From: Octopus vulgaris
Lineage: Eukaryota
DNA: 64,000 nucleotides
Reading direction: 5' to 3'
NCBI GenBank assembly: GCA_951406725.2
Contig: OX597841.1
Location: 23,684,001-23,748,000 of the forward strand
The notes beneath the pieces were generated by a model that had not been told where the DNA came from, did no database searches, and saw only the letters and a list, made by a program, of their open reading frames with translations. Within the stretch, counting starts at the first letter, position 1; every line of letters begins with the position of its first letter. Of the stretch, positions 1,617 through 58,622 are shown in pieces. Both the position numbers and the translations under genes were made by a program.

Positions 1617-2029
1617 ACTTTAATTTCAAAATTAAATTTCATGGTTATTCCAGAAATCATGGTAAATATCAGCCAACAACTAGAATTGGTATTTTCTGGA
1701 AGTCATGCTGCTTCAATAAACTTGACACAGATCTCAACAAAATATTAAATTTCAAACATTGACATTCCTCAACAAAAGACAGATGGGTAAATAAAACTGC
1801 TTTCTGAAGTCAAAGGTAATGAAATTTTGAGTGGAAATATCTGATCTCTGCAGTAAAAGAGTTAATTACATTAAATAATGCACTCCTTGATTTGTTAGAA
1901 ACAGTAGCCAAATCTCCCTCAAATCAGAGAGATTTTGACCCTTTAACTGCAAAATTAAATCTTTCCAGTAATGATATTAAATATCTGTCTAAAAATGGAA
2001 TTGGTATTTTCTGCAAGTCATTTTGCCTT

Positions 2030-2348
2030 AATAAATTAGGTTTAGGGATGGGGGAAGGGTATTTTTTTTTCTTCACAAATGTAAGTAAACCCAATCTGTT
2101 TCTTAAACGAGGGACATTTTCATACGGCACAGAATATATTTTTTTTACCTCAATAGACGTCATTGATTGGTTGAAATTACAGAAATTGAAGAAAAAAACA
2201 ACAAATATCTTCCAAACTATAGTATTTTCTCAATAAAGCCAAGAGAAAAAGATGTTTTATAAACACATTCTACCAGTATACGAAGTTTAAAAGTGTTTAG
2301 TTACGTGGAAATTATTTTAAAAAACTGCCGTTCAAACCGAAAAGATCC
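2030..2348. repeat. Dispersed repeat of unclassified family
   Basis: AAAGCCAAGAGAAAAAGATGTTTTATAAACACATTCTACCAGTATACGAAG recurs at about 25320 and three times in 26120-26545. Confidence 0.7.
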
Positions 2349-2444
2349 TCAATATTTCTTTCCGTAAACACATTTAATGGTCCATTGCTGAGATTTCAGC
2401 AAAAAAAGGCCGTATTTAAAACTCTGATTTTAAAGAAAAAATTC

Positions 2445-2880
2445 AAAAAACATTTTTTAACTTCGAAAACTTTAAAAAAAAACCCAACTTTTTTTCGAAA
2501 TCGTAGAAAAGGTTTTCTGAAAATTCCCGAAACTTAAAAAAGTTATGAGGGATTATATAGGGCGCTTAAGCTAGAATTCCACCGCCAACGCTACTAAATC
2601 ATCCTAATCCTCCACGCAGGATTTGCAGAAACCCAAAGATAACAGAAACCACAAAAATATAAAAATAAAAATATTTTTTAACTTCGAAAACTTAAAAAAA
2701 CCCCAACTTTTTTTCGAAATCGTAGAAAAGGTTTTCTGAAAATTCCCAAAACTTAAAAAAGTTATGAGGGATTATATAGGGTTCTTAAGCTAGAATTCCA
2801 CCGCCAACGCTACTAAATCATCCTAATCCTCCACGCAGGATTTGCAGAAACCCAAAGATAATACAGAAACCACAATAATA
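2445..2880. repeat. Direct tandem duplication, about 221 bp x 2
   Basis: CTTCGAAAAC at 2461 and 2682, with near-identical downstream sequence. Confidence 0.85.
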
Positions 2881-3394
2881 TAAAGAATAACAAGATTTAT
2901 CTTTCTTTCTGGGAGTGATGTTATATTTATAGTATTCAAGCTTTTTGCTTGCTTCTTTCTGTCTTTTCTTTCTCTATTCTATAATTAATATGTAAACGTA
3001 TACGGGCAACGTCAGACAAACTGTCTATCTCTACCAGGTCTGTGAAAATGCTTGTGGCCTTGCTTGTTTAAACGTAGTCAGGCCTATTTTGGATGAATGC
3101 CAGTTCGGTGAAAGGAACAATTTTGATGCGGTGTGGAGCCTGGCTGGATAACTTACTGCCGTGGACTTAGTTATTAACATCGCAAACACCAAACATACAT
3201 GTACACATAGAGCAAAAATTCGTGTAAAAAACCCCCCAAAAAACAGAATCTCAGAAGAAAAAAAGAACCATTTTTCATATAAATATATTAATAAAGAATT
3301 AATATAGAATTTCATCCACCAAAAGGACGAAGGTCAAAAAAGTAAAAAAAATATAAAACCCACACTAATTATAAAAAAACACTAACATCTTTCG

Positions 3395-3872
3395 GTACTA
3401 CTAGCGAACAGTGGTCCCGGTGCGCGCACTCGCGTAGTCGCACATCCGCGCTAGCTAATCGTGACTAGTCGATCCTTTCTTCGTATCTTTGTGTATTATT
3501 TACTTTGTTTAATAAATTATTTATTTTGTGGGTACTACTGGAGAACAGCGGTCCCGGTGCGCGCACTCGCGCTGGCTAGTCGTGACTAGTCGATCCTACG
3601 TCTACCTAGCAAAGTAAATAATTTATTTATTTTGTGTTTTATTTACTTTGCTAAGTAGACGTTGTAGGATCGACTAGTCACGACTAGCCAGCGCGGATGC
3701 GCGACTACGCGAGTGCGCGCACCGGGACCACTGTGTTTTTGCGTGTTATTTTACTTTGTGTTTTATTTACTTTGCTAGGTAGACGTTGTAGGATCGACTA
3801 GTCACGACTAGCTAGCGCGGATGCGCGACTACGCGAGTGCTCGCACCGGGACCTCTGTTCTCCAGCAGTGCC
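3395..3872. repeat. CpG-rich foldback: two forward and two inverted copies of a ~75-bp unit around a central hairpin
   Basis: GGTCCCGGTGCGCGCACTCGCG...GTGACTAGTCGATCCT at ~3414 and ~3550, with reverse complements at ~3667-3730 and ~3790-3853. Inner stem CGTCTACCTAGCAAAGTAAATAA / TTATTTACTTTGCTAAGTAGACG. Confidence 0.85.
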
Positions 3873-4049: not shown

Positions 4050-4115
4050 ATGTCTCGTCACTATATGCCTGAAAGGCGGTTCGCACCCGACCCCAATGAT
4101 CAGAACGGCAGAATG
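4050..4115 (+). CDS. Candidate upstream/first exon (MSRHYMPERRFAPDPNDQNGRM), possibly of CHTOP
   Basis: Unique CpG-containing sequence with ATG at 4050, 22 open codons and a perfect donor ATG|GTAAGT at 4115/4116. Phase 0 would join in frame to acceptor 47032 (ISNK-MAQVP). No homology recognised. Confidence 0.3.
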
Positions 4116-4440
4116 GTAAGTTAAAAGAGTTTTGTTTTGTTTACTGTTGTTTTAAACCCCTTGTGTCGGGCTTTTCTTGAGTAAGAACTCTGGCGCAAAG
4201 GGGATTCCTCCCTTGGACAATCCGGTCTCCTTTTTTTTTGCCTTTGCCTTTACTACTACTATGTTGTAGTGATTCCGAAAATGAACTTCCAACTCGCGAA
4301 TGTGCTCGATCGGTTTGTTTTTCTGAGATCGAGAAAGTGCTGCGAAGGGGCCGAACACAACTTCTCTCTGACCAAACCAATACAAAAAAAAAAAAAAAAA
4401 AAAAAAAGGAAAAAAAGAAAGAAAAAAATAGTGAATTATC

Positions 4441-11040: not shown

Positions 11041-11077
11041 TATATATATAAACGACCTATTCTTACATCAGTGTATA

Positions 11078-11222
11078 ATCGACATAAAGGATGGTTTAAA
11101 ACTCTCTTCAGCCGCATGCAATTGTTATACCAAAGGTTTGGATTTTTCATAATGTGATGTAAACCTTTGGTATAACAATTGCATGCAGCTGAAGAGAGCT
11201 TTAAACCATCCTTTATGTCGAT
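11078..11222. repeat. Near-perfect inverted repeat, ~62-bp arms
   Basis: ATCGACATAAAGGATGGTTTAAA...ATACCAAAGGTTT / AAACCTTTGGTAT...TTTAAACCATCCTTTATGTCGAT. Confidence 0.9.
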
Positions 11223-11224
11223 GA

Positions 11225-11693
11225 CTGGCACCCGGCAGTTGCCAGGACCGCTGGACTGACTCCTGTGCAGGTGGCAAGTGAAGAAACACCATTTCGACCC
11301 TGTGCTTGAGGAGATCCATTGAGTCAAGTACACCAACATCAAAAATCAATGGAAACTGCAGCTGTGATCCCTGTACCAGTGGCACGTAAAAAGCACCATC
11401 CGAACGTGGCCGATGCCAGCACCGCCTAGACTGGCTTCCGTGCCGGTGGCACGTAAAAAGCACCAATCTGATCGTGGCCAATGCCAGCCTCACCTGGCAC
11501 TTGTGCTGGTGGCACGTAAAAAGCACCCACTACACTCACGGAGTGGTTGGCGTTAGGAAGGGCATCCAGCTGTAGAAACACTGCCGGATCAGACTAGAGC
11601 CTGGTGCAGCCTTCTACCTTCCTAGATCCCCGGTCGAACCGTCCAACCCATGCTAGCATGGAGAACGGACGTTAAACGATGATGATGATGATG
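11225..11693 (+). mobile_element. Family-C retroelement, near full-length copy with (GAT)n tail
   Basis: Internal GGTGGCACGTAAAAAGCACC subrepeats and an AAACGATGATGATGATGA tail. Other copies at 22890-23195, 32205-32550(-), 33655-33960(-), 37090-37372, 37710-38302(-), 38490-38977 and 49300-49522. Confidence 0.85.
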
Positions 11694-16100: not shown

Positions 16101-18850
16101 TTGTGTGGACCCTTCAAGGTGGTGCCTCTGCATAGCTACAATCCAGTAACTGATTTTGCAATAAATACATCTAAACCAACCCTTTTCATTGACACTTAAC
16201 ATAGCTACTGTGGGTCCCCAATTTACTATTTCTCTTGTGTGGACCCTTCAAGGTGGTGCCTCTGCATAGCTACAATCCAGTAACTGATTTTGCAATAAAT
16301 ACATCTAAACCAACCCTTTTCATTGACACTTAACATAGCTACTGTGGGTCCCCAATTTACTATTTCACTTGTGTGGACCCTTCAAGGTGGTGCCTCTGCA
16401 TAGCCACAATCCAGTAACTGATTTTGCAATAAATACATCTAAACCAACCCTTTTCATTGACACTTAACATAGCTACTGTGGGTCCCCAATTTACTATTTC
16501 TCTTGTGTGGACCCTTCAAGGTGGTGCCTCTGCATAGCTACAATCCAGTAACTGATTTTGCAATAAATACATCTAAACCAACCCTTTTCATTGACACTTA
16601 ACATAGCTACTGTGGGTCCCCAATTTACTATTTCTCTGTGTGGACCCTTCAAGGTGGTGCCTCTGCATAGCTACAATCCAGTAACTGATTTTGCAATAAA
16701 TACATCTAAACCAACCCTTTTCATTGACACTTAACATAGCTACTGTGGGTCCCCAATTTACTATTTCTCTTGTGTGGACCCTTCAAGGTGGTGCCTCTGC
16801 ATAGCTACAATCCAGTAACTGATTTTGCAATAAATACATCTAAACCAACCCTTTTCATTGACACTTAACATAGCTACTGTGGGTCCCCAATTTACTATTT
16901 CTCTTGTGTGGACCCTTCAAGGTGGTGCCTCTGCATAGCTACAATCCAGTAACTGATTTTGCAATAAATACATCTAAACCAACCCTTTTCATTGACACTT
17001 AACATAGCTACTGTGGGTCCCCAATTTACTATTTCACTTGTGTGGACCCTTCAAGGTGGTGCCTCTGCATAGCCACAATCCAGTAACTGATTTTGCAATA
17101 AATACATCTAAACCAACCCTTTTCATTGACACTTAACATAGCTACTGTGGGTCCCCAATTTACTATTTCACTTGTGTGGACCCTTCAAGGTGGTGCCTCT
17201 GCATAGCCACAATCCAGAACTGATTTTCAATAAATACATCTAAACCAACCCTTTTCATTGACACTTAACATAGCTACTGTGGGTCCCCAATTTACTAACT
17301 TGTGTAATCTTCAAGGTGGTGCCTCAGCATAGCCACAATCCAGTAACTGATTTGCAATTAATACATCTAAACCAACCCTTTTCATTGACACTTAACATAG
17401 CTACTGTGGGTCCCCAATTTACTATTTCACTTGTGTGGAACCCTTCAAGGTGGTGCCTCAGCATAGCCACAATCCAGTAACTGATTTTGCAATTAATACA
17501 TCTAAACCAACCCTTTTCATTGACACTTAACATAGCTACTGTGGGTCCCCAATTTACTATTTCACTTGTGTGGACCCTTCAAGGTGGTGCCTCTGCATAG
17601 CCACAATCCAGTAACTGATTTTGCAATAAATACATCTAAACCAACCCTTTTCATTGACACTTAACATAGCTACTGTGGGTCCCCAATTTACTATTTCACT
17701 TGTGTGGACCCTTCAAGGTGGTGCCTCTGCATAGCCACAATCCAGTAACTGATTTTGCAATAAATACATCTAAACCAACCCTTTTCATTGACACTTAACA
17801 TAGCTACTGTGGGTCCCCAATTTACTATTTCACTTGTGTGGACCCTTCAAGGTGGTGCCCTCTGCATAGCTACAATCCAGTAACTGATTTTGCAATAAAT
17901 ACATCTAAACCAACCCTTTTCATTGACACTTAACATAGCTACTGTGGGTCCCCAATTTACTATTTCACTTGTGTGGACCCTTCAAGGTGGTGCCTCTGCA
18001 TAGCCTCTGCATAGCTACAATGCCCCAGCCAGTAATGCCTCTGCATAGCTACAATCCAGTTGATTTTACAATAAATTGATTTGTTCAACTAAAACCCTTC
18101 AAGGTGGTGCCCCAGCATGGCCACAGTCCAATGACTGAAACAAGTAAAAGATAAACCCCCAGGTGTCATATACTGGATTGATTTGTTCAACTAAAACCCT
18201 TCAAGGTGGTGCCCCAGCATGGCCACAGTCCAATGACTGAAACAAGTACAAAGATAAAAGATATACTGTGGGATTGATTTGTTCAACTTGTGTAAAACCC
18301 TTCAAGGTGGTGCCCCAGCATAGCCACAGTCCAATGACTGAAACAAGTAAAAGATAAAATATTCTGGGATTGATTTGTTCAACTAAAACCCTTCAAGGTG
18401 GTGCCCCAGCATGGCCACAGTCCAATGACTGAAACAAGTAAAAGATAAAAGATATACTGGGATTGATTTGTTCAACTAAAACCCTTCAAGGTGGTTACTA
18501 TTTCACTTGTGTGGACCCTTCAAGGTGGTGCCTCTGCATAGTACACAATCCAGTAACTGATTTTGCAATAAATACATCTAAACCAACCCTTTTCATTGAC
18601 ACTTAACATAGCTACTGTGGGTCCCCAATTTACTATTTCACTTGTGTGGACCCTTCAAGGTGGTGCCTCTGCATAGCCACAATCCAGTAACTGATTTTGC
18701 AATAAATACATCTAAACCAACCCTTTTCTATTTGACACTTCAACTCTAGCTACTGTGGGTCCCCAATTTACTATTTCACTTGTGTGGACCCTTCAAGGTG
18801 GTGCCTCTGCATAGCCACAATCCAGTAACTGATTTTGCAATAAATACATC
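13160..18850. repeat. Satellite array with 134-bp and 180-bp variant units
   Basis: CTACTGTGGGTCCCCAATTTACTATTTC has period 134 (16071, 16205) or 180 (14111, 14291). The unit contains the SINE-tail motif CCCTTCAAGGTGGTGCC. Confidence 0.95.
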
Positions 18851-21140
18851 TAAAGATATACTGGGATTGATTTGTTCAACTAAAACCCTTCAAGGTGGTG
18901 CCCCAGCATGGCCACAGTCCAATGACTGAAACAAGTAAAAGATAAAAGATATACTGGGATTGATTTGTTCAACTAAAACCCTTCAAGGTGGTGCCTCTGC
19001 ATAGCTACAGTCCAATGACTGAAACAAGTAAAAGATAAAAGATATACTGGGATTGATTTGTTCAACTAAAACCCTTCAAGGTGGTGCCCCAGCATGGCCA
19101 CAGTCCAATGACTGAAACAAGTAAAAGATAAAAGATATACTGGGATTGATTTGTTCAACTAAAACCCTTCAAGGTGGTGCCCCAGCATGGCCACAGTCCA
19201 ATGATTTTGAAACAAGTAAAAGATAAAAGATATACTGGGATTGATTTGTTCAACTTAAAACCCTTCAAGGTGGTGCCCCAGCATTTACAGTCACAATGAC
19301 TGAAACAAGTAAAAGATAAAAGCCATATACTGGGATTGATTTGTTCAAGCTAAAACCGGTTTCAAGGTGATCACCGCAGTGAAGCATGGCCTAGTCAGTC
19401 CAATGACTGAAACAAGTAAAAGATAAAAGATATACTGGGATTGATTTGTTCACATGGCCTTCAAGGTGGTTGAGCATGGACTCGCAGTCCAATGACTGAA
19501 ACAAGTAAAAGATAAAAGATATACTGGGATTGATTTGTTCAACTAAAACCCTTCAAGGTGGTTCCAGCAGAAGGTCCAATGACCAAGTAACTTCTGTTGA
19601 TTTGTTCAACTAAAACTTTCCCTTCAAGGTTTTTGCCTCCTGCATCTTGCAGTCCAATGACTGAAACAAGTAAAAGATAAAAGATATACTGGGGATTTGA
19701 ACCCCTTATGAGCCAGGCATGGCTCGAGAAGGAACAAATTTCATTTGTGTAGACCAGTGGTTTTCAACCAGTGTTCCTCGGAACCTTAGGGTTCCGCCAG
19801 TACAGTCCAGGGGTTCCGCAAGAAGTTGCAAAACTGCTAAAATCGGCAGTAATTTTTAATTCTCCTGTGCAGATATGTGTGCATAAGACAATTAAATTAT
19901 TGCACAGGGGTTCCTCGAGCCAGTGGAATGTTTCCTTGGGGTTCCGCTCCAGCAAAAAGTTTGAAAAACACTGGTGTAGACCCTTAAAAATATACTGGGA
20001 TTGATTTGGTTCACCACTGAGTAAACCCTTCAAGGTGGTGCCCCAGCATGGCCACAGTCCAATGACTGAAATAAAGTAAAAGATAAAAGATATACTGGGA
20101 TTGATTTGTTCAACTAAAACCCTTCAAGGTGGTGCCCCAGCATGGCCACAGTCCAATGACTGAAACAAGTAAAAGATTTGTAGCCAGATGGTTTGGGAAT
20201 ACAGCTGTTGCCATACTATAGACTGGAAGGTGGTGCCCCAGATCCTGTTTAGTCCCAATGACTGAAACAAGTAGATAAAAGATAATACCAACTGGGCCTC
20301 CTTGTTAGTCGCTGTTTAACTATCTGCTCTGATTGATAAGTCAATCAATCAGTAATGAAGGATAAAAGATATACTGGGATTGATTTGTTCAACTAAAACC
20401 CTTCAAGGTGTGCCCCAGCATGGCCACAGTCCAATGACTGAAACAAGTAAAAGATAAAGATATACTGGATTGATTTGTTCAACTAAAACCCTTCAAGGTG
20501 GTTCGGCAAAAGCATGGCCGATAGAATGACTGAAACAAGTAAAAGATAAAAGATATACTGGGATTGATTTGTTCAACTAAAACCCTTCAAGGTGGTGCCC
20601 CAGCATGGCCACAGTCCAATGACTGAAACAAGTAAAAGATAAAAGATATACTGGGATTTGTATTCAACTAAAACCCTTCAAGGTGGTGCCACCAGCAGTG
20701 TTTGTCCACAGTCCAATGACTGAAACAAGTAAAAGATAAAAGATATACTGGGATTGATTTGTTCAACTAAAACCCTTCACTTAGGTGGTGCCCCAGCAAA
20801 AGGAGACTGAAACAAGTAAAAGATAAAAGATATACTGGGATTGATTTGTTCAACTAAAACCCTTCAAGGTGGTGCCCCAGCATGGCCACAGTCAAATGAC
20901 TGAAACAAGTAAAAGATAAAAGACCATCTGTGTAAACACATTTAAAAAAAGAAAAAAACTTTTACAGTCTGTCGGCCCATTTGATGCTCTACCAGTCAAT
21001 GGTTACTGCTGTAATGAGCTGAGGGTTTTGTTTTTATTAGACAGATGGTTGCAAATTGAGATATACTGGGAAGGATTTGTTCAACATAAACCCTTCAAGG
21101 TGGTGCCCCAGACATGGCCACAGTCCAATGACTGAAAAAA
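18060..21140. repeat. 93-bp satellite derived from a SINE 3' end, interleaved with the previous array
   Basis: CTGGGATTGATTTGTTCAACTAAAACCCTTCAAGGTGGTGCCCCAGCATGGCCACAGTCCAATGACTGAAACAAGTAAAAGATAAAAGATATA; period 93 (18861, 18954). Confidence 0.9.
19755..19973. mobile_element. hAT (Charlie-like) MITE with 8-bp TSD
   Basis: TIRs CAGTGGTTTTCAA / TTGAAAAACACTG and a perfect target duplication GTGTAGAC at 19747-19754 and 19974-19981. Confidence 0.9.
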
Positions 21141-21279: not shown

Positions 21280-21281
<2 letters not shown>

Positions 21282-21590
21282 CTTTATTCAAAGCAGCAGA
21301 AAATTCAACAAAACCTGTTACTCTGAGTTTCCCATTGCCGTTCGTCGGCAAAACCTGTTACTCTGGGTTTCCCATTGCCGTTCATCGGCAAAACCTGTTA
21401 CTCTGAGTTTCCCGTTGCCGTTCGTCGGACAGTTTTTGCTAGCAAAAACTGTCCGACGAACTGGCCAACTTTCAAATGGCTTTGGGTTTTGTTGAATTTT
21501 CTGCTGCTTTGAATAAAGCACATTACTCTACCACTGGTATTTGAGTACTCTTTTTTCCACCTTGTTTCACATTTATGTGTTTACTCCGGT
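21280..21590. mobile_element. Penelope-like palindromic terminal fragment with three tandem hammerhead-like units on the minus strand
   Basis: Inverted arms CTTTATTCAAAGCAGCAGAAAATTCAACAAAA / TTTTGTTGAATTTTCTGCTGCTTTGAATAAAG, a 40-bp unit x 3 at 21310-21430, and a homologue at 44770-44916. Confidence 0.6.
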
Positions 21591-34064: not shown

Positions 34065-34760
34065 CGGGCCGACCAAAGCCTTGTGAGTGGATTTGGTAGA
34101 CGGAAACTGAAAGAAGCCCGTCGTATATATGTGTGTGTTTGTGTGTCTGTGTTTGTCCCCCCTAGCATTGCTTGACAACCGATGCTGGTGTGTTTACATT
34201 GCCGTTATTTAGCGGTTTGGCAAAAGAGACCGATAGAATAAGTACTGGGCTTACAAAGAATAAGTCCTTCAGGGTGATTTCCTTGACTAAAGGCAGTGCT
34301 CCAGCATGGCCGCAGTCAAATGACTGAAACAAGTAAAAGGGTAAAAGAGTAAAGAGTAAGCATTTTGCCCAGCATGCTAACGATTCTGCTGGCTTGCTGC
34401 CATGTAAACAAACTAAATAATTCTGTTTCTTTTCTTTTACTTGTTACAGTCATTTGACTGCGGCCATGCTGGAGCACCGCCTTTAGTCGAGCAAATCGAC
34501 CCCGGGACTTATTCTTTGTAAGCCCAGTACTTATTCTATCGGTCTCTCTTGCCGAACCGCTAAGTAACGGGGACGTAAGCACACCAGCATCGGTTGTCAA
34601 GCAATGCTTGGGGGACAAACACAAACACACACACATATATACAACAGGCTTCTTTCAGTTTCCGTCTACCAAATCCACTCACAAGGCTTTGGTCGGCCCG
34701 GGGCTATAGTAGAAGACACTTGCCAAAGATGCTACGCAGTGGGACTGAACCCAGAACCAA
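34065..34760. mobile_element. Two family-B SINEs in tail-to-tail inverted orientation
   Basis: 34065-34358 (+) and 34430-34758 (-), separated by about 70 bp. Confidence 0.85.
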
Positions 34761-46996: not shown

Positions 46997-47043
46997 TTAA
47001 TATCCTCTGTGTTTTATCATTCTCTTTGCAGATATCCAATAAG

Positions 47044-47105
47044 ATGGCTCAAGTCCCTGCTAAGATAGTGCTAAAGAGCACTACAAGGATGTCACTGAAT
47101 GACCG
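47044..47105 (+). CDS. CHTOP: CHTOP first conserved coding exon (exon spans 47032-47105)
   Basis: Acceptor TTCTCTTTGCAG|47032, AAGATGG start, and donor CG|GTGAG. MAQVPAKIVLKSTTRMSLNDR matches the CHTOP N-terminus as recalled (KVVLKSTTKMSLNER). Confidence 0.93.
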
Positions 47106-47526
47106 GTGAGAAAATATTGCCTTCCGTTTGGAAATTGATTTTATTTCAACTTGGCTTTGCTCAGGCAGATCATATATATATATATGTATATATATCTATA
47201 TATAAATATATATATATATTTATAAATATTATATATATATTATAAATATTATATATATATATTTGATATATTATAAAAATTATATATAATTTTATATATT
47301 GTGAATATATTTTATATATTACAAATATATATATTTTATATATATATATTATAAACATATTATGTATATTTTTATATATATAAAGGAAGTATGCTTTCAA
47401 AATGGTCTGCGAAATAAATATATATATTTGAATAAAGTTAAGTTTATGAAAATGCAACAAAAGTGCTACCCTGATGACTTATTATGTGGGTTGGTGGCTC
47501 TGGCGGCGGCCACAGCAGCATCGGTT

Positions 47527-47806
47527 GTGGGACTCGGTCGTCGAGGGGGAGAGGTGAGGGTGTGGGTGAGTGTAGAGGGGGCCCTGTGCGTGGCGTCTTG
47601 ACTCGGGCTGTGATGTCGGAGGGGGCCCTGGCCCACTCTTCCGTTGCCTCCTCGTCCATGGTATGATGGGCCGCAATCTCTCACCCCCGTGCGTCTCGCT
47701 CCGAGTTGTTCATGGCCACGCCCTCTTTTGGGTTTACTCCGCTACACTACATTCCACCCTCACTCCCTGCCTCCTCACCACCCTGTGTCTCTTCTCGACT
47801 CCCCAC
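47527..47806 (+). promoter_or_regulatory. Predicted long GC-rich intronic RNA stem-loop
   Basis: Eight short helices in nested order, e.g. GUGAGGGUG 47554 / CACCCUCAC 47755, GCGUGGC 47588 / GCCACGC 47715, ACUCGGG 47601 / UCCGAGU 47700. Confidence 0.6.
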
Positions 47807-48213
47807 TTGCCATCCTTCTCCATTTCAGCATTCTCTGTCATCACCATCGTCATCATCTTTCTGCCATCAACATGTCCTCAAAGACTGATTCTCTCCCTCC
47901 TTGTCGATTCTTGTCCACAACTTGCCAGCCAGCCAGCCAGCCAACCAACTGACTAACCAGCCAGCCAGCCAGCTGGGTGGTGACACACAACAGTTGCCTC
48001 TCTTTTCTTTTGTTCTTTCTTTCTTTCTTGCTCTCTTCCTCTGTTGTTGTGTTGCCTCACGTCAGCCCACAGTCACAGTGGTAGCCACATCTGAGCTTAA
48101 TTCCAAAAAGGGCAAAAAAAAAAAATAAATACCACATAATATCTATACATGTCCATGTATATACACTCTCTCAATACACACATACACACACACATATATG
48201 CATATAAATATAT

Positions 48214-48294
<81 letters not shown>

Positions 48295-48441
48295 TAAATG
48301 TATACGTGTGTATAACATAGTTGTGTGCATGTATTGTATAAAATGTATGCACATACTGTGGTAAGTGTATACATTCCAGCTCTGATCCTAAAATGCTACA
48401 AAGTGGTGTGTAGAATTTACATGTGTATATAAATGTTTGTA

Positions 48442-48475
<34 letters not shown>

Positions 48476-48529
48476 TATATGGACGCACGTTTCTGGATTA
48501 GAGTCATAAGATTAATTTCCTTTATCAAC

Positions 48530-48701
48530 ATAATATTCCGATAAATATATCTAGAAATGCTAGGAAATCTTACCCTCCATATTTCCGACCAAGCGACGTG
48601 GATATGCTGATTAGCTTCTGTATGTTCCGATGTCGCTTGGTCGGAAATATAAGAAGGTAAGATTTCCTAGCGTTTCTTAGATTTATTTACCGGAATATTA
48701 T
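48530..48701. repeat. Imperfect inverted repeat (~70-bp arms)
   Basis: ATAATATTCCG...CTAGGAAATCTTACC...ATATTTCCGACCAAGCGAC / GTCGCTTGGTCGGAAATAT...GGTAAGATTTCCTAG...CGGAATATTAT. Confidence 0.85.
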
Positions 48702-48719
48702 ATATGTATATATATATAT

Positions 48720-49296
48720 ATTCTTTTATTTGTTTCAGTCATTTGACTGCAGCCATCCTGGAGCACAACAATTAGTTGAACAAACCGATCCTAGTACTTA
48801 TTCTGTCGGAATCTTTTGCTGAACTGCTAAGTTACGGGGGAGATAGTAAACACACCAGCATCGGTTATCAAGCGATCGGGTGGAGGGACAAACACAGACA
48901 CACAAACATATACATATTTGTATATGACGGGCTTCTTTCGGTTTCCATCTACCAAATCCATTCACAAGGCTTTGGTCGGCCCAAAGCTATTCTTTGTAAG
49001 CCTAGTACTTATTCTGTCGGAATCTTTTGCTGAACTGCTAAGTTACGGGGACATAGTAAACACACCAGCATCGGTTATCAAGCGATCGGGTGGAGGGACA
49101 AACACAGACACACAAACATATACATATTTGTATATGACGGGCTTCTTTCGGTTTCCATCTACCAAATCCATTCACAAGGCTTTGGTCGGCCCAAAGCTAT
49201 AGCAGAAGACACTTCCCCAAGGTGCCACGCAGTGGGATGAACCCAGAACCATGTAGTTAGTAAGCAAGATTCTTACCATGCAGCCACTCATGCACC
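48720..49296 (-). mobile_element. Family-B SINE (minus) with internal 210-bp duplication
   Basis: CTAGTACTTATTCTGTCGGAATC at 48791 and 49001. Confidence 0.85.
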
Positions 49297-49999
49297 TTAA
49301 TCCGTTCGTGGCCGTTTGCCAGCTCTGTCTGGCACCTGTGCAGGTGGCACGTAAAAAGCACCTACTACACTCACGGAGTGGTTGGCATTAGGAAGGGCGT
49401 CCAGCCGTAGGAACACTTCCAAATCTGACTGGGCCTGATGAAGCCTTCCGGCTTCACAGACCCCAGTTAAACCGTCCAACCCATGCTAGCATGGAAAGCG
49501 GACGCTAAACGATGATGATGATGTGCTAGCCTGTTGGAATACCCTGGTCTGTACCTTGCTGTACTCAAGAGGACCCATCCTCCACAGTAGAAGCATTAAG
49601 GCTGCATCTCTTGGTGAAGAGGATTGGCCTGCAAAAGTTTTGTGCTGGTGCCTCATGAAAGTGCCTGTGCCAATGGTATGTATATGGCGGTGCCCCAGCA
49701 TGGCCACAGCTCATGAGCTGAAACTAGAATCAATCATATGCACGCTCGTGCCAGTGCCGCTTGAAAAACACCCTTCGCACACTGTAAAGTGGTTGGCATT
49801 AGGAAGGGCATCCAGCTGTAGAAACCAAACCAAATTGCACTGGAATCCGGTGCGGCTCTCTGGTCTGGCTTGCCAGCTCCAACCCATGCCAGCATGGAAA
49901 AACACATCAAAGGATGATGATGATGATTTTACCGCACCAGGCAACTGAGAGCAAAAACAAATGCAGCATAAGGAAAATACAACATATTTCTCCCTAGAA

Positions 50000-50500
50000 A
50001 AGTGCCTGCAAACATCCAGATTAGATATATCAATGAAACAGGCCCCTTTTGCAAAGTTTTCCTCTTCCCCAATGCCCGCTCTGATATGGTCTTGGAAAAG
50101 TGACTGCATTCCAGGTTCAGATGGGAGTCCTTAGCTCATGCTGCCTTGCTCTTGATAGCAAGTGCCAATGAGCCATTGGCCCTATGGGGCTGTCCATCAC
50201 CACTTCTCATAAGGCAGCCAAAGGGTTTCAAATCAGGAGGTATTTGGGGCTTAAAAGATCGTCTTTGGGGAGTGGTTTACACCTTTTTCTTGCTGCATGT
50301 GTATTGCTCTCTCTTTCTTCCTTTGGACGTGTACCTGATGTCCTCATCTGCGATGCATCATACAGTGGACTCTGCCACCTTGAGATTGGAGGCCCTGCAA
50401 TATGCTAAATTTTTCAATGTTTGTGTCCAGGGTCTTTTTCCTGGTAAAACTCACCCACTCCGATGACTACAGTTTACTAAAGTTGTGTTCACAAATGGCT
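50000..50500 (-). mobile_element. Possible highly decayed Tc1/mariner transposase remnant
   Basis: PPDLKPFG on the minus strand near 50240 resembles SPDLNPLD; otherwise weak. Confidence 0.3.
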
Positions 50501-51148
50501 GGCATACCTGATATATATATATTTATATATATATGTATATTTGCATGCATGTTTATATACACTCTCAGACACCTCAGTAGCCAAGAAAAATATATTACCA
50601 AAATAATAATAGTAATATTATTAATAATAATATTATAATGTTCTATGCTTGCATGAAAAAAAAAATAACAATATGATAAATATTGAGGATCAAATCCAGA
50701 GCTGGGATCGTCAGAAATAAGATTTCTGGTTTTGCTGCAACTCCCTTATCCCTTGCCATCACAACATTCTCTCTCTGTCATACACACTTTTGTGTAAGCC
50801 CATTGCTTTCTTAAATACCATACACCTTGAGAGAGAGTGAGGACGTACGCAGCCTTGATGACGGAACCTAACCCATCCACATCGATCCTGAATGGCTGCG
50901 TCTCTGCCACTCTTGGCTCATCACCATTTCTACTACCTCTGTTCTTCTGCTGGCACACTGTTCTTTCTTTCTACCCTCATTGTGTCACACTGTGCCATTT
51001 CTGTTTTCACCATACTACTGTTCTACCTTCTTTTGGACTTTGGTACGACCTCTTCACTACGGCCCCTATTCCGTCCCGCACCTTGTCCAATGGGTCTACA
51101 TCCTGCCACTCCTACTCCCTAATCACTTCCACTCACCTGTATCTAACA

Positions 51149-51722
51149 CTAGCAGTATTGCCCGGCTCAACGGGGGTTTCAGGGAGTCGCTGGCGATGTA
51201 TCGCGATGATCAAAAATCCGGCCTGCTAAAATTTGGTTAAAGTGATTCAAACTGCAGACTCAATGCAAAATGGTCACATTTAATTCAAAGCGTTAAAAAT
51301 GTTATGAAAACAATTGGTATTTGTTCACAAAGTCCAAACGATTAATACGAAAAAACCCTCCAGGCTACATCCTGAAAATTCATTTCTTTACCGAATTTCT
51401 ACAATGTTTACGGCGATTCGTTTTTATATCTTGATTTTTTATTTTCCATGCAATTTACGCATGCTTGCACACGTGGTGAACACAGTTCATGTCAAACAGC
51501 TGACTGAGTAAAGTTCACTATTCAATGCATGGGATAAGGCCTAAACAAACACATTATCGATTTTTGCACTTGTGAGATGAATTTCGAAACAGAAATAGCG
51601 CAGTTCAATTTTCATTTGCCTAAACTTTAAGTGACCCATTTTTGATGGTTCTACGATTTGTTGGCTAGATGTGCCGGGAAGTTAAACACACAGACACACA
51701 AGTTGAGTTCTATATATATAGA
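51149..51722 (-). mobile_element. Non-autonomous Helitron
   Basis: Plus strand begins A|CTAGCAGTATTGCCCGG and ends TATATATATAGA|T, i.e. TC...CTAG on the minus strand. Confidence 0.8.
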
Positions 51723-51839
51723 TGTCTCTAACTCTTTTAAGATGGAATTGTGTGGATCATAGAAATTTAGCTGCCGTTTCTAACAGGCTAACCGACTTTA
51801 TTGAGACTTTCTAGTTGCACTGTACTATATTTAGTTATC

Positions 51840-52800
51840 GCTGTTGAACCCTAGGTCTGCTCTGATCCAGATGTTTCAGCTGTTACCTTCCTTTATTCAG
51901 GCAAAGTCTACCTAAGCCTACATTACTCAATGTATCCTTCCTTGTTCTTGTTGCTTTGCTCCAGAGGTGACCATCATGTCATTTATTTAGACATAATGTA
52001 TCTAGGACTACACTATCCATTGTGTCCTTCCTAGCTCTTGTGGTTTAACCCTAGGTTGGCTCTGATCCAGCAAACCTATGATCATCCTGGCTTCTATTGA
52101 AATGGATTGTGTCTCTGACTGCATTATTTAATGTGCCATTCCTAGTTTTTGGTCCAGAGGTGACCATCCTGTCATATAGTTTAACATAGTGTATCTAGGA
52201 CTACATTATCTAATGTGTCGTTCCTAGTTCTTGTTTAGCCACAGGTCAGTCCTGATCCAGCAGACCTATGATCAAAGATATTCCAGCTGTGACCATCCTG
52301 TCTTTTATTATTCAGGCATAGTGTATCTAGGAGTACATTATCTAATGTGTCCTTCCTTGTTGTTGTTTAGCCACAGGTCAGTCCTGATCCAGCAGACCTA
52401 TGATCAAAGACATTCCAGCTGTGACCATCCTGTCTTTTATTATTCATGCATCGTGTATCTAGGAGTACATTATCTAATGTGTCCTTCCTTGTTGTTGTTT
52501 AGCCACAGGTCAGTCCTGATCCAGCAGACCTATGATCAAAGATGTTCCAGCTGTGACCATCCTGTCTTTTATTATTCATGCATAGTGTATCTAGGAGTAC
52601 ATTATCTAATGTGTCCTTCCTTGTTGTTTAGCCACAGGTCAGTCCTGATTCAGCATGCTCCAAAGTACTACTGGAGGTAACTAGCCTGTCGTTAATTCAG
52701 ACATAGTGTACCTAAGAGTACATCATCTAATGTGTCCTTCGGGTCTTGTTTAGCCCCAGGTCAGTCTCGATCCAGCATGATCGTAAGTGCCACCAGTGGT
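51840..52800. repeat. Degenerate-to-young tandem repeat (132-bp period in 52200-52660)
   Basis: TACATTATCTAATGTGTC at 52202, 52334 and 52466. Segment 51886-52074 is the source of the 61140 array. Confidence 0.85.
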
Positions 52801-53277
52801 GACTGTTCTGTCTTTTATTCTGGCAGTGTGTGTAAGCTGACACCATTCCGTCCTTCCTTCCTTGCTTCTATTTCTAGCAAGTCAAAGTGACTCTACAGCT
52901 GCTGCTTTGTCGATTTCTCGTTAGGAATTTAGTTAAAACAAACAAATACTAAAAATAATATTTAGAGTAAAATAGGCAACAGTCAACCTGAATGGCTGTC
53001 TGTTTCTCTCCCAAATTGCTGTTGTGGACACCAGTCGTTAGTGAACTAATTAACGAGTGACAAGCATTAGTATGGTACACTGGTAGTTCAGTTAGTTACC
53101 AGGTCGGGTGTCAATTGGAGTAATTCTACACCTCCCCCACCATCAAAGCTGGCCTTGGTCTTTTTTTTTTAGTTTTTGTTTTTGTTCCATGTTTCAGTCA
53201 TTTGACCGTGGCCATGCTGGGGCACTTGTGCATGTTTCAGTCATTTGACTGCAGTCGTGTTGGGGCACAGCTTTCAC

Positions 53278-53735
53278 ATCAGGCCCCCACCACTAGGCTC
53301 CAGCCACCAGGCTCTGGCCAGCAGGTATCACTACCAGGCTCCAGCCATCAGGCCCCCACAACTTGGCTCCAGCCATCAGGCCCCCACCACTAGGCTCTGG
53401 CCAGCAGGTTCCACCACCAGGCTCCAGCCATCAGGCTCTGGCCAGCAGGTATCACAACCAGGCTCTAGCCAGCAGGTCCCACCACCAGGCTCCAACCAGC
53501 AGGTCCCACCACCAGGCTCCCTCCACAAGGCTCCAGCCATCAGGCCCCATCCACCGGCTCCAGCCATCAGGCCCCCACCACAAGGCTCCAGCCATCAGGT
53601 TCTGGCCAGCAGGTATCACTACCAGGTCCCAACCATCAAACCCCAACCACCAGGCCCCAACAGCAGGTTCCAGCCACCAGGCTCCGACCATCAGGCCCCA
53701 ACCACCAGGCTCCAGCCATCAGGCCCCCAACCACC
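53278..53735. repeat. GC-rich minisatellite (CCACCAGGCTCCAGCCATCAGGC-type units)
   Basis: Seen directly. Confidence 0.9.
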
Positions 53736-54192
53736 AGTCTGTGGACCATTTCATACTTGGCGATGCAGAAAGAATATAAAAAGGTTGACGGGGCGGCGGG
53801 GACTGCTGCCACTGTTCCAGTTCGTTTCTACTTCCGTATCACTCTCTCCTCATCACTCATCATTCTCATCTCATCATTCGCCCCCATTTGTGACACCCCT
53901 GAAAAGACACCTCAGTTTGAAGCTGAACATAAATCAGGGTGTCCACCCCACTCTACCATCTATCTCTCTCTTGAAATAAGGGAGTGTGCAGCATGGAATT
54001 TCAAAAGCTCAGGTAGTATATATATATACATCTACATTGCTCTTATATTTCATATGTATATAAAATATATATGTGTGTATATATATAATATATATATGTG
54101 TATATATATATATCTTAAGTGCTTATTTGATTGCATTGGAAAAAAAAAGCTTTTATCAAGCAACAACATTTTGCCAACAAATCATAATAATG

Positions 54193-54224
<32 letters not shown>

Positions 54225-55162
54225 TTGCAAATGAAAAACGATGTGGTAAAATGAATAAAAATTTGCAAAATCCTAAAACCCTCAAAACGGATAAACATAT
54301 ATTTATGCAAATATATGTAATATATTATTATGTTTAATGTGTGTATAATTAAATGAAAACAGCATGTGGCATAAGAAAAATTTGAAGAAAAAAAAAAAGA
54401 GAATCGAAAAACTTGCTCAAGGCAAGATTCTCATGCTGAGTGGCCTCAACACAACATACACTTTGTATTTTTTGCCCTGCATAATTTTTGCTCACGATAT
54501 TTCTGCTGCTGTTTCCACAACTCCACCCCTGCCTTGTGCTGCCTTGCCCTTGCCCTTCTCTTCTCTTCTCTCTGACCCCCATCATTGATGTCTGTCTTAG
54601 CTGCAGTGGCCCAGCACAGTTGTGGAACAGTACAGCATCCCCTCATCATCATCATCGTCATCGTCATCATCTGACCACCTCTTGTAAGACAAAGGAACAG
54701 GCACTTGTTTATCTTCAAAGTGCTCTCTCTGTCTCTCTCCCTCCCTCCCTCCCTCTGTCTCTCTCTTTCTTTCTCTCACTCAGCTGTTTGGTCCCTTTTT
54801 ATCCGATCTGGTGTATGTCTCGTTTTTTGTTTGGACTTCAATTGTATTCCCCCCCATAACTGGCTTCATTTACTGGGTCAAGGGTCGAGTCTCATCTCAG
54901 GTGCTTTCAGTTTTGCATCTTTGCTTTGAATCCCCACATTCACTCTTTCCTCCTTCCACTCTCTCTCTCTTCCATCCTTCCTCTCTCATTTACAATAGTT
55001 TCTGCTTTTTTATGGGCTTATTAGGGTTCACCATTCTGTACCCTTACTTAATCCACTTCTCCTTTGCACATCCACTTCTGCTCCTTCTCTCTCTCTCTGT
55101 CACACAGTGTGTGTGTATGTGTTTACATATATAGATGTATATATATATATATACATACATAC

Positions 55163-55193
<31 letters not shown>

Positions 55194-55217
55194 GATATAT
55201 ATATATACCTACATGTG

Positions 55218-55265
<48 letters not shown>

Positions 55266-55279
55266 TTTATATATATATA

Positions 55280-55669
55280 CTAGCAGTATCGCCCGACGTT
55301 GTTCGGGTTTGTTTCGACCCGCTGGAATTGGAATTTTTGAAAAGTAAAAATTTTGCATTATGTAGCTTGTTATTCTCTTCAAGTGAACATTTTTCTGGTT
55401 GAAATACACCGAAAAGTGGCGACACAGCAGTGAAAAAAATCGTAAAAAATAGGGATTTTCATAGAAAAAAAGCACCTTTTTGATGTAAATAATTTTTGGT
55501 GTTAACATGGTCTGATTTGAATTTTATCTTCTACGGAAGGAAGATCAACCCTTCTATCATACTCTCAATTTTGGTCAACTTGTGCCGCAGGGTCTCGGAG
55601 GAGATAGTGTTAGTTGAAGGCTACCAAACCTGGCGCACACAGACAACTTCAGCTTTATATAGAGAGAGA
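55280..55669 (-). mobile_element. Non-autonomous Helitron
   Basis: A|CTAGCAGTATCGCCCGACGTTGTTCGGG ... ACAACTTCAGCTTTATATAGAGAGAGA|T; termini are reverse complements of 26649-27043. Confidence 0.85.
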
Positions 55670-56125
55670 TAACACACACACATCTATGTATGTATGTATG
55701 TATATATGTACATCTGTCCACTTCTTGCCATATTTTTATCCTTCACTTCCTACACACTCTCACACACAGACACACACACACCTTCTTAGCTTACTATTTT
55801 CTTTCAACAATTGACACTGTCATATATGTATATGTTTGCGTGTCTATGTGTGTAAAGAGAAAGTGTGCTGATAGGCGGAGTAAAAGCCTTTGAAGTGAGA
55901 GAGGGAAATCGTAAAATATTGAGTTTTTTCAAATTTTTGCTTAATTGGGGGTCAAATTGAAAGAAATTTATATGCCATGACCGAATCGAATCTACTTCAA
56001 AAAATCATGGGTAAATTCTAATTGAAGAAATTCTATATTGTAGAATTGTACTAAAAAGGAACATGGGAACAGGCAGAGAAAATCTGCCTTTTATCATAAG
56101 AGATATATATACATGTGTATATATG

Positions 56126-56156
<31 letters not shown>

Positions 56157-56190
56157 TTAAAAAAGATGTGGAACACGAGTTGTGATAGAT

Positions 56191-56489
56191 AAAAAAGGAA
56201 ATGAAGAAAATGCTGACAAAATAATTTAAGTAAGGGAGAGTGTATTTAATTAGGTGAAAGTTCTTTTTACCGGTTGCGCATTTGTTATGCTTATCAAAAG
56301 ATATTTTTTTAAGTGAGATAGAGTTCCTTTCTGATAAAAAATCTATCAGAAAGGAACTCTATCTCACTTAAAAAAATATCTTTTGATAAGCATAACAAAT
56401 GCGCAACCGGTAAAAAGAACTTTCACCTAATTAAATACACTCTCCCTTACTTAAATTATTTTGTCAGCATTTTCTTCATTTCCTTTTTT
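56191..56489. repeat. Perfect palindrome with 146-bp arms and a 7-nt loop (Penelope-like terminus)
   Basis: 56191-56336 is the reverse complement of 56344-56489 with no mismatch seen; loop AAAAATC. Confidence 0.95.
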
Positions 56490-56869
56490 TATATATATAT
56501 AGATATGTGCATATATTTATGTTTGTGTGTATGTCTACATGTGTGTGTGTATATGTATATGCACACAATCACAAATCTGAAACACTAATCACACATCAAC
56601 ATATCCCCAAAGCGCTCATTCTTTCTGTTTGTTTCTTCTTTCACCTCACCCCCTCACCTTTTTTCCTTCTTTTCTATGTCGCATCTTATTTACTTTGTCT
56701 TATTCTCCTAACTATTTTGAGATACGACCTGAGCGTTTCGTAGGTTTTATTATCACAGCCTTACCTAGATATGTTTCAGGGAAATTTATACAAGTTATGT
56801 TGTATTCATAGATAGATTTGTGGGGCTTCTAGTGACTCCGTTAATCGTCCAATGTATAGCAGCACTTGG

Positions 56870-57175
56870 CCCTTCAGCATATAGCAACCCAATCAGTTCT
56901 TCAGCATATAGCAACCCCAGTTGGTCCTTCAGCATATGGCAACTCAATCAGTTCTTCAGCATATAGCAGCACCAGTTGGTCCTTCAGCATATAGCAGCCC
57001 CAATCAGTTCTTCAGCATATAGCAACCCTAATTGGTCCTTCAGCATATAGCAACCCAATCAGTTCTTCAGCATATCAGCATATAGCAGCCCCAATCAGTT
57101 CTTCAGCATATAGCAACCCCAATTGGTCCTTCAGCATATAGCAACCCAATCAGTTCTTCAGCATATAACAACCCC
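56870..57175. repeat. ~27-bp minisatellite (TTCAGCATATAGCAACCC...)
   Basis: Seen directly. Confidence 0.9.
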
Positions 57176-58060
57176 TGTCAGCCCTGCAGTATACCAAATT
57201 TCCATAACCAATACTGATTTATTTCTGGTAATTCTACAGTGGCAAGCTAGCGGAATCGTTACTGTACTGGACAAAAATGCTCAGAAGCATTTCTCTGGCT
57301 CCTATGTTCTTAAGTTCAAATGCCACCGTGGTCAACTTTTGATTTTCATCCTGGGGTCAATGTAATCAACTGACCCCTTTCCCCTTAAATTTGAAGCCTT
57401 TTTGCTTATAATAGAATTATTAATGCTAAATCTTATTTTATTTTCGTAAAGTATACTAGCCATCTCAATATGGCTAACCCCTAAGGGTGGGTGTTACTGT
57501 AGCTTGTAGCCCCAGGAGATCATCGTCTCCAGCTGGCTTTAGGCACACTTTCTGTGCTCTTATGGTATTTGTAAAGGGAGGTCATCCCTCTCTCGTAAGC
57601 CTAAGTGATACGCACGGACTGCAGTTTCGGGGTTGTTGCCTCTTGTCTACGCACGGACTGCAATTTCGGGGTTGTTGCCTCTTGTCAACGTACGGCAATC
57701 ACCGGTTTTACATCTCGTTCAGAGATTTATTATTGCTTATTTTATTTTATTTTGAGAAAACTTCGAAGCCATTCAATCTCTTCCTTTCTTGCTGTTATCA
57801 TCATCCCATCATCATCATCATCACCACTTTCATTTCTCTTGTCATCGTTATAATCCTTGTCATTATCATCAGTTCTTTTACTCTCCCTCATCAGCTCCTT
57901 AATCATCATTTCTCCGACATCGTCGTCACATCACTTTGTTGAGACGAAAGGATTTTTCTTCTTTTTTTCCTTCTTGTTTGAAACTAATTGAAACGAGCAA
58001 AAAAAAAACCCCCCAAAAAAAGACAAAGTGAAAAACACAACCATCATGACGATTGATATG

Positions 58061-58091
<31 letters not shown>

Positions 58092-58468
58092 ATAATAATG
58101 TTGGCAAAATAAGCATATGAAATATATAAATATATATTTGCAAATACATAAGGGCAAAATGAAAAATATTAAAGAAAATAAACAAAGGCCTAAGTTTATG
58201 ATTATTTTGGGCTCATGTAATATGTTGTTGTGATTTTATGGTTGTGTGTGCCACAAGCCACATTTAACGACCACAATGTGTCGCCGTGGCTCTCCTTTCC
58301 CCCTCTCTCTTTTTCTCTCACTCTCCGCTCCCCCTTTCTCTCTCTTTCTGTTACCCCCCCCCCCCCCGGCCCCTTGCCGTGGCCCCGTTACCCCCTCTCC
58401 GTCCCCACCCACCCTCAGTTCGTAAGTGATGAATATACTTTACCGCCCTCCTTTCCCCCCACATGAAG

Positions 58469-58622
58469 CTTCACGAACATACAGAAGAGTCGTCCACCCG
58501 TGACGGTCCAGAACATTCGTGCCAAGATGGCGGCACAGCAGCAGGCGTCGGTGCGGAACCGTAGGCTAGCCCAGCAGATGGCTAACCGACCGAGCGTGAT
58601 CGCGGCCCTGAAGATCAAGAGG
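58469..58622 (+). CDS. CHTOP: CHTOP second conserved coding exon
   Basis: Acceptor ...ATGAAG|C completes CG+C (Arg), and the exon ends at donor AGG|[57 protein letters not shown] matches the CHTOP motif [25 protein letters not shown] as recalled. Confidence 0.95.

Follow-up and report, generated by a model that had tools for sequence, protein, structure and literature searches.

The window, that is, the whole 64-kb stretch of DNA analyzed here, carries the 5′ portion of an octopod CHTOP gene, encoded on its + strand. An exon at 4050–4118 (end approximate), upstream of exon 2, was located by tblastn with residues 1–24 of the proteins P0003 and P0004 (96% identical) and corresponds to the N-terminal extension of the annotated Octopus proteins. 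Exon 2 (47032–47105) follows a CAG acceptor and encodes, from the ATG at 47044, MAQVPAKIVLKSTTRMSLND and two bases of an Arg codon. Exon 3 (58469–58622) gives 51 residues that are 100% identical to four octopod CHTOP entries from Argonauta hians, Octopus vulgaris and O. sinensis, the O. sinensis one being named chromatin target of PRMT1. The octopod proteins P0001–P0004 read SLNDR/FTNIQ across the exon 2/exon 3 junction, and together these matches bear out the initial annotation, which had placed its finding in a CHTOP intron just downstream of this donor. The RG-rich CHTOP exons lie beyond the window and are known here from relatives; the N-terminal region is the most conserved part of our 12-protein CHTOP alignment. 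Residues 99–128 of P0004, an extra exon in the annotated O. sinensis CHTOP isoform, match a multicopy repeat of the window (e.g., 18075–20899) and may be an exonised repeat or a mis-annotation.

Intron 2 extends from 47106 to 58468 (11,363 nt, phase 2) and holds many microsatellites and interspersed repeats. Its donor (47106–47111, + strand, GT at 47106) puts a TGA (47107–47109) in frame if the intron is retained, an immediate stop that is automatic for any phase-2 GTRA donor. The acceptor (58449–58468, + strand) is a C-rich pyrimidine tract ending in AAG. A degenerate (AT)n tract (47172–47384) lies between the donor and a structured block which, with a G+C content of 0.67 over 47501–47700, is the most G+C-rich non-repeat part of the intron; on the far side another AT tract begins near 48176. 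The block had been described as starting about 420 nt downstream of the donor, and position 47527 is indeed at +422 from the donor GT. Open frames of up to 126 codons between stops are found in it; a coding reading was rejected, as no insert at the junction was seen in the CHTOP proteins examined (10 of 27).

Two further features of the intron deserve mention. A pyrimidine-backed CAG (58416–58427) stands 50 nt before the true acceptor and is followed after 3 nt by GTAAGT; its use would lead to a stop two codons on, or to a 3-nt microexon, as at a possible unproductive or decoy site. The non-repeat blocks at 50600–51150, 53740–53900, 54220–55100 and 57750–58460 have in common an A/T-rich run followed by a C/T-rich tract with CAT repeats and are perhaps remnants of a once shorter intron that insertions have broken apart.

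All 16 motifs quoted in the initial annotation occur at their positions, and five of its eight helices are present in every context folded (47554/47755, 47569/47742, 47588/47715, 47601/47700 and 47630/47667), with mean pair probabilities of 0.94–1.00. The remaining three fared less well. AGAGGG 47574/CCCUCU 47721 overlaps both of its neighbors and formed in no fold. The two outer helices are displaced in longer folds: UCGAGGGGGAGA 47541/UCUCUUCUCGA 47788 was formed in none, the G-run at 47541 pairing instead with 47770–47776 in short folds and with 47891–47903 in long ones, and GUGGG 47527/CCCAC 47802 appeared in the 293-nt fold (47520–47812) only. What had been claimed as a nested stem-loop of ~280 nt is thus predicted to be a shorter rod within a larger structure. 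The context-independent rod core (47554–47763, + strand; +449 to +658 of the intron) spans 210 nt and has 75 predicted pairs (48 G-C, 15 A-U and 12 G-U). The G-U pairs had been taken as a sign of an evolved RNA, yet their excess follows partly from halves that are G+U-rich and C+U-rich, and no covariation was found among the near-identical alleles compared.

Around the rod, a larger structure of ~625 nt is predicted (47463–48088, + strand; +358 to +983 of intron 2), with outer helices at 47465/48080, 47475/48071 and 47486/48066. A duplex of 47523–47553 with 47891–47922 appears when more context is folded, and the outer part of the G-rich arm switches its partner with the folding context. Folding energies were compared with those of shuffled sequences on both strands: 47520–47812 gave −132.9 kcal/mol (z −3.78, none of 200 shuffles as good), against −114.2 kcal/mol (z −2.02, 7 of 200 as good) for its minus strand. 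As the two halves differ, G-rich first and C-rich second, shuffling was also done in separate blocks. For 47527–47806, the bounds of the initial annotation, z was −2.9 in the whole shuffle (1 of 100 as good), −4.2 in halves, and −2.2 both in quarters (70-nt blocks, 3 of 100) and in eighths (35-nt blocks, 1 of 100). The bounds of the core and of the larger structure were picked from the fold, so that their z values are upper estimates: −4.2, −4.2, −3.4 and −2.9 for the core in one, two, four and six blocks (2 of 150 shuffles as good in the 35-nt blocks), and −4.95, −5.0 and −4.07 (the last in 52-nt blocks; 0 of 45 as good each time) for 47463–48088. The 57 long-range pairs of the core were reached by 0, 1, 0 and 2 of 150 shuffles for the same series of blocks, and those of the larger structure by 0, 1 and 3 of 45. 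On these predictions the rod is present and exceeds what composition gives.

The rival reading is that the fold is a by-product of a G-rich tract followed by C/U-rich sequence (61 G/31 C in the first half, 22 G/62 C in the second), with any function residing in the linear G-runs. The modest z of −2.2 for the originally drawn bounds in block shuffles fits it, and so do several other results. By energy, the finding ranks fourth among 456 windows of 280 nt plus itself. Seven of the 14 most stable 280-nt windows have z values of −9 to −22, like true inverted repeats, and three others have z −2.5 to −2.8, which is how 47527–47806 scores. No 120-nt window inside the rod has a z below −1.0. Moreover, the G-rich arm is predicted to pair as well with unrelated C-rich repeats (duplex energies of −127.8 and −126.2 at 53341–53690) as with its local partner (−124.2), and its top duplex among 174 windows beyond the intron is as stable (−128.1). 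A bridge from this arm to the acceptor region was considered and dropped: its single match of 12 nt is equalled by other C-rich tracts, and the acceptor region of intron 2 has no fold of its own (z 0.11).

Comparison of alleles bears on the same question. The block stretch is present, by at least half of its sequence words, in 20 of the 24 sequencing runs listed (8 studies, 3 organisms), none of them on record as RNA. Of the 20, 13 are marked as guessed RNA and have 79–199 million letters of contigs, the other seven having 1,859–3,828 million; presence in a run is not used here as evidence of expression or retention. Four of the 20 (X2, X12, X18 and X20) were aligned to 47385–47920 at 80% likeness. 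A single contig of X2 covers the whole region, and one of X12 covers it from 47437 onward; neither shows a joint or a loose end. The genome-sized X18 contributes a piece over 47765–47920 at a depth of 5.1, plus two short ones at the A+T-rich beginning, and X20 gave no aligned piece. Within the rod three places vary: C47641T (X12), A47749G at a bulged base (X2) and T47752G (X2 and X12), with refolding costs of −0.4, 0.0 and +1.2 kcal/mol, respectively. The first gives a U-G pair by the window fold, yet the apical 4-bp helix dissolves on refolding; the last, common to both runs, turns a G-U pair into G.G. Of all 741 single substitutions, 25%, 40% and 57%, respectively, disturb the fold no more than these do, so the rod alleles are not notably gentle. 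None of the three places shows a compensatory change, these being near-identical alleles only, and one shared allele breaks a pair, as the by-product reading would allow.

Most of the between-allele variation lies elsewhere, in a large predicted loop (47764–47890, + strand). Nine more variant places and several indels fall at 47814–47862, partly in a TCA-type triplet repeat, and no difference was seen over 47863–47920, which includes most of the partner strand 47891–47922, in any of the three covering runs. Outside a 25-nt repeat, four of the six X2 substitutions are in the loop, which makes up 102 of 511 positions (binomial 0.017, from one or two haplotypes); with X12 pooled the value is 0.033, still from very few haplotypes. 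This clustering counts against a by-product of composition, as does the standing of the block as the most G+C-rich non-repeat one in the intron. With local composition kept, z remains at −2.9 to −4.2 for the core and at −4.1 to −5.0 for the larger structure. We regard the by-product reading as unlikely, though one that retains real weight.

The most stable helices of the rod contain two donor-like motifs (47551–47571, + strand), GAG/GTGAGG with GT at 47554 and TGG/GTGAGT with GT at 47566, which are two of the four G/GTRAG sequences in the 11.4 kb of intron 2. They are unpaired at a mean of 0.11–0.12 in the predicted fold, the second rising to 0.23 with the 47752 allele. The rod might gate these sites, so that when folded it would protect the true donor and when opened it would offer decoy or alternative donors, causing stalling or a stop-bearing isoform. 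An acceptor-like CAG (47162–47164) is at hand for such an exon, and an intronic element common to two other animal loci (L004 and L007) also ends in a donor-like sequence. According to the available text of PMC6097662, decoys typify retained introns longer than 1 kb, and several sites in them frequently compete. Gating is nevertheless improbable. Shuffling the arm 2000 times gives a pair of such motifs in 10% of cases, so that the pair is not clearly above chance, the implied exon would include the 213-nt AT tract, and both sites are bridged by single unbranched contigs in X2 and X12, although contigs drop rare forms.

The initial annotation had further read the G-runs as hnRNP H/F-type motifs. 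There are seven G-runs of 3–5 in the 5′ arm; all are paired in the predicted fold, so that access of hnRNP H is not given. Its remark that hnRNP H opposes CHTOP intron retention in human agrees with the available text of PMC5175361, in which hnRNP H promotes removal of intron 2.

A role of the rod as an ADAR substrate, whose editing would tune CHTOP splicing, had also been suggested and is highly improbable in our assessment. It is a long bulged duplex in a coleoid, and one A>G was found at the bulged A47749 in X2. However, this change occurs in one of two covering runs, in the absence of matched DNA, and leaves the fold unchanged. The idea is further weakened because the core has only 15 paired A and no unbroken helix longer than 9 bp, and because better substrates exist in the same intron, namely a perfect 146-bp hairpin (56191–56489) and an inverted repeat near 48441–48720. 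The former has a 7-nt loop and is a strong dsRNA candidate, or else a very recent inversion or assembly artefact. Other MITE-like fold-back repeats of the window, with z values of −9 to −22 as at 48441–48720, are located at 3501–3780, 11061–11340, 21281–21560 and 34301–34580.

The chance is slim that 47463–48094 is a separate non-coding RNA of box C/D scaRNA type, or the 3′ terminus of a transcript polyadenylated within the intron. TGATGA (47472–47477) and CTGA (48091–48094), resembling boxes C and D, stand at the ends of the larger predicted structure, a likely coincidence, and AATAAA occurs at 47413, 47431 and 48124. Yet the C-like box lacks a leading purine and is itself predicted to pair with 48071–48075, and AATAAA is common in an A+T-rich context, with eight such hexamers in the intron. 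The 620 nt are also long for the box C/D scaRNA class. Against 4227 Rfam families, the window gave no match at gathering level, and the 81 matches obtained with E values of up to 10 all fell outside 47554–47763. Slimmer still is the chance that the block is a fold-back transposon (MITE) in decay or a repeat of another kind: repeats abound in the intron, true inverted ones among them, but those have z values of −9 to −22, the many copies and long near-perfect inverted arms of MITEs are not seen here, no second copy of the block exists within the 64-kb window (where nothing of it recurs but 18 nt of a common repeat, 47511–47528), and no further copies were seen in X18, which has no coverage of 47457–47764 and whose filter drops some records. 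The block does not behave like a recent DNA inversion, as the initial annotation had argued, nor like a multicopy element. In the metagenome contigs the exon-2/donor pattern was found in no stretch, and a 22-nt piece of the rod had no match in the viral contigs.

The 12-protein CHTOP alignment was also used for a scan of other animals, which gave 36 loci from 148 candidate stretches; 12 match the N-terminal part and 24 the C-terminal part, 14 of the latter with genomic-looking upstream DNA. Intron 2 is complete in three of these loci (2.13 kb in L002, 1.39 kb in L007 and 0.51 kb in L034), and its 3′ part is seen in L004, L015 and L018. Its phase and place are identical in all six other animal loci that show its acceptor. 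An in-frame stop at the start of intron 2 is found also in L007 and L034, while in L002 the first stop comes at codon 63. In none of the three full distant introns was there blastn likeness to the rod or a block rich in G+C, the maximum being 0.47 per 150 nt; the rod is hence not a feature of animals at large. In a search for common short words, an ACAGTG-type word with small hairpins near the distant donors was dropped: there were 30 common 6-mers against 20.8 ± 4.7 expected (8 of 200), two common 7-mers (49 of 200) and no common 8-mer.

What these loci do have in common is the acceptor triplet. Intron 2 ends in AAG in six of the seven animal loci, namely at 58466–58468 of the window, 2279–2281 of L002, 1335–1337 of L004, 5928–5930 of L007, 850–852 of L015 and 1681–1683 of L018, and in CAG in L034. 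Counted by lineage this is four of five, as L004/L007 and L015/L018 are related pairs. None of 17 other CHTOP acceptors (14 of last exons and 3 of exon 2, read by eye without transcripts) ends in AAG. The contrast has a Fisher p of 5e-5 by locus and of 0.048 by lineage (4/5 vs. 0/4), both uncorrected for descent and for a pattern noticed before testing. In the competition experiments described in the accessible part of PMC2018619, AAG is the third acceptor triplet, below CAG and TAG.

One contig adds to this. L002 (87–3026) has a short leader and exon 2 ahead of the 2.13-kb intron, after which the CHTOP frame is open without a break as far as the stop. It looks like a transcript that retains intron 2 alone, given that it lacks the later intron present after exon 3 in all six genomic-looking loci (L004, L007, L015, L018, L020 and L034); it could also be a one-intron gene. 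Among the six transcript-like contigs over the junction, L002 is the one that keeps the intron, and L001, L003, L006, L008 and L029 are without it. The weak acceptor and L002 make a better-supported new point than the rod, and one that bears on the intron, not on the rod. The weak acceptor in several animals suggests that control of CHTOP intron 2 is old.

Some elements of the distant introns were noted in passing. The L002 intron carries an inverted-repeat element (about 726–1273). Intron positions 824–894 of L007 and 1–63 of L004 form the common element mentioned above, which ends in GTG/GTAAGA; L007 has a second motif at intron position 768, and the element is a candidate cryptic exon in the CHTOP intron 2 of another lineage. 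The ~330 nt before AAG are 81% alike in L015 (526–852) and L018 (1348–1683), with a GTAAGT in one of them.

Our preferred reading, held with somewhat less than even confidence, is that the block likely acts in cis within a feedback loop, through which CHTOP would slow the removal of its own intron. By analogy with the human CHTOP loop, the folded block likely helps to keep intron 2 unspliced. The host gene, the intron position, the in-frame stop at the donor and the AAG acceptor are features of the locus itself. The rod is predicted to hide the seven G-runs and the two donor-like motifs. From the weak acceptor in distant animals and from L002, the intron would seem to be built for slow removal, with retention probably visible in at least one other animal. 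As in human, the conserved N-terminal domain of CHTOP would then bind the block and raise retention, RNA containing the stop would be detained or degraded, and hnRNP H/F-type proteins would oppose retention when the G-runs are exposed. Hidden donors could supply a stalling step, yet the frequency of such motifs in shuffles and the unbroken contigs tell against this part. For a retained intron of 11.4 kb, nuclear detention appears more likely than cytoplasmic decay.

Several points are consistent with such a feedback element. The octopus block lies at +358 to +983 of the intron, as compared with about +325 to +465 for the human stem-loops, the transcribed strand has the better fold, and substitutions avoid the paired part. 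The want of covariation, the dissimilar distant introns, the different shape of the human element and the equally good pairing of the G-rich arm with unrelated C-rich repeats weigh against it. The best reading we can offer is that an old control of CHTOP, of the retention type, is served here by a structured element peculiar to the lineage, unlike the human stem-loops in shape and possibly their octopod counterpart in job rather than in sequence; the structure appears lineage-specific and the regulated intron old. A bolder and doubtful extension is that self-limiting retention of CHTOP intron 2 could be an old animal trait in which the weak AAG has been kept and the structured sensor rebuilt in each lineage, in octopods as a ~625-nt RNA that would be opened by CHTOP or by G-run-binding proteins, exposing hidden donors. 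If true, an intron fixed in place, its weak acceptor conserved but its structural sensor replaced, would clearly exemplify regulatory logic that outlasts its sequence. Should the rod instead merely reflect composition, the AAG acceptors and the L002 contig would still provide a lead on conserved CHTOP intron retention.

Among known systems, MITE-type fold-back repeats, which serve as dsRNA and ADAR substrates, resemble the rod in forming a long intramolecular duplex inside an intron. They differ from it in that the rod has short bulged helices, is A-poor, has no second copy found and reaches a z of about −3 to −4 vs. −9 to −22. The decoy exons of SF3B1, OGT, ARGLU1 and DDX39B (Parra et al. 2018, PMC6097662) are another such system. 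In the available text of that study, retention of long introns (>1 kb) is promoted by decoy exons that offer multiple competing sites; such exons are deeply conserved and are seen by junction reads under NMD block. Intron 2 of octopod CHTOP is likewise a large intron (11,363 nt) of an RNA-processing gene with neighboring donor-like motifs; these are, however, buried in a helix, not clearly above chance, and without joints in the X2 and X12 contigs, for which NMD block is not on record and in which rare forms are lost.

The closest likeness is to the human CHTOP element Int2-1-2-2 (Izumikawa et al. 2016, PMC5175361). As far as the available portion of that paper goes, human CHTOP promotes retention of its own intron 2, an in-frame stop lies at the 5′ end of this intron, and NMD removes the RNA. 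The protein contacts exon 2 through its RG domain and, through its N1 domain, a region of 142 nt in which two stem-loops are predicted; their offset we calculated from the coordinates of the paper. Later papers (PMC6547761 and PMC12385487) merely cite this work, judging from their accessible text. Among the papers listed on these subjects, mostly outside subscription journals, we found no report of the octopus element or of CHTOP retention in an invertebrate. The initial reading as a candidate cis-regulatory RNA is the best one, with the reservation that the block is closer to the published human stem-loops than had been supposed. Both systems have CHTOP as host, with its conserved N-terminal domain, the second intron with a stop at its start, and a predicted structure with G-containing stems a few hundred bases past the donor. 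The human element, conserved in vertebrates and tested by binding and minigenes, consists of two short predicted hairpins with conserved repeats in 142 nt of a 1.6-kb intron. That arrangement was not found in octopus, where one 210-nt rod within a ~625-nt predicted structure occupies an 11.4-kb repeat-rich intron; the comparison is one of shape, not of letters. The octopus block is kept with few changes in runs of three organisms and is absent from the three full distant introns. We conclude that the predicted structure is real but was over-described, and that it lies where human CHTOP has a known regulatory stem-loop.
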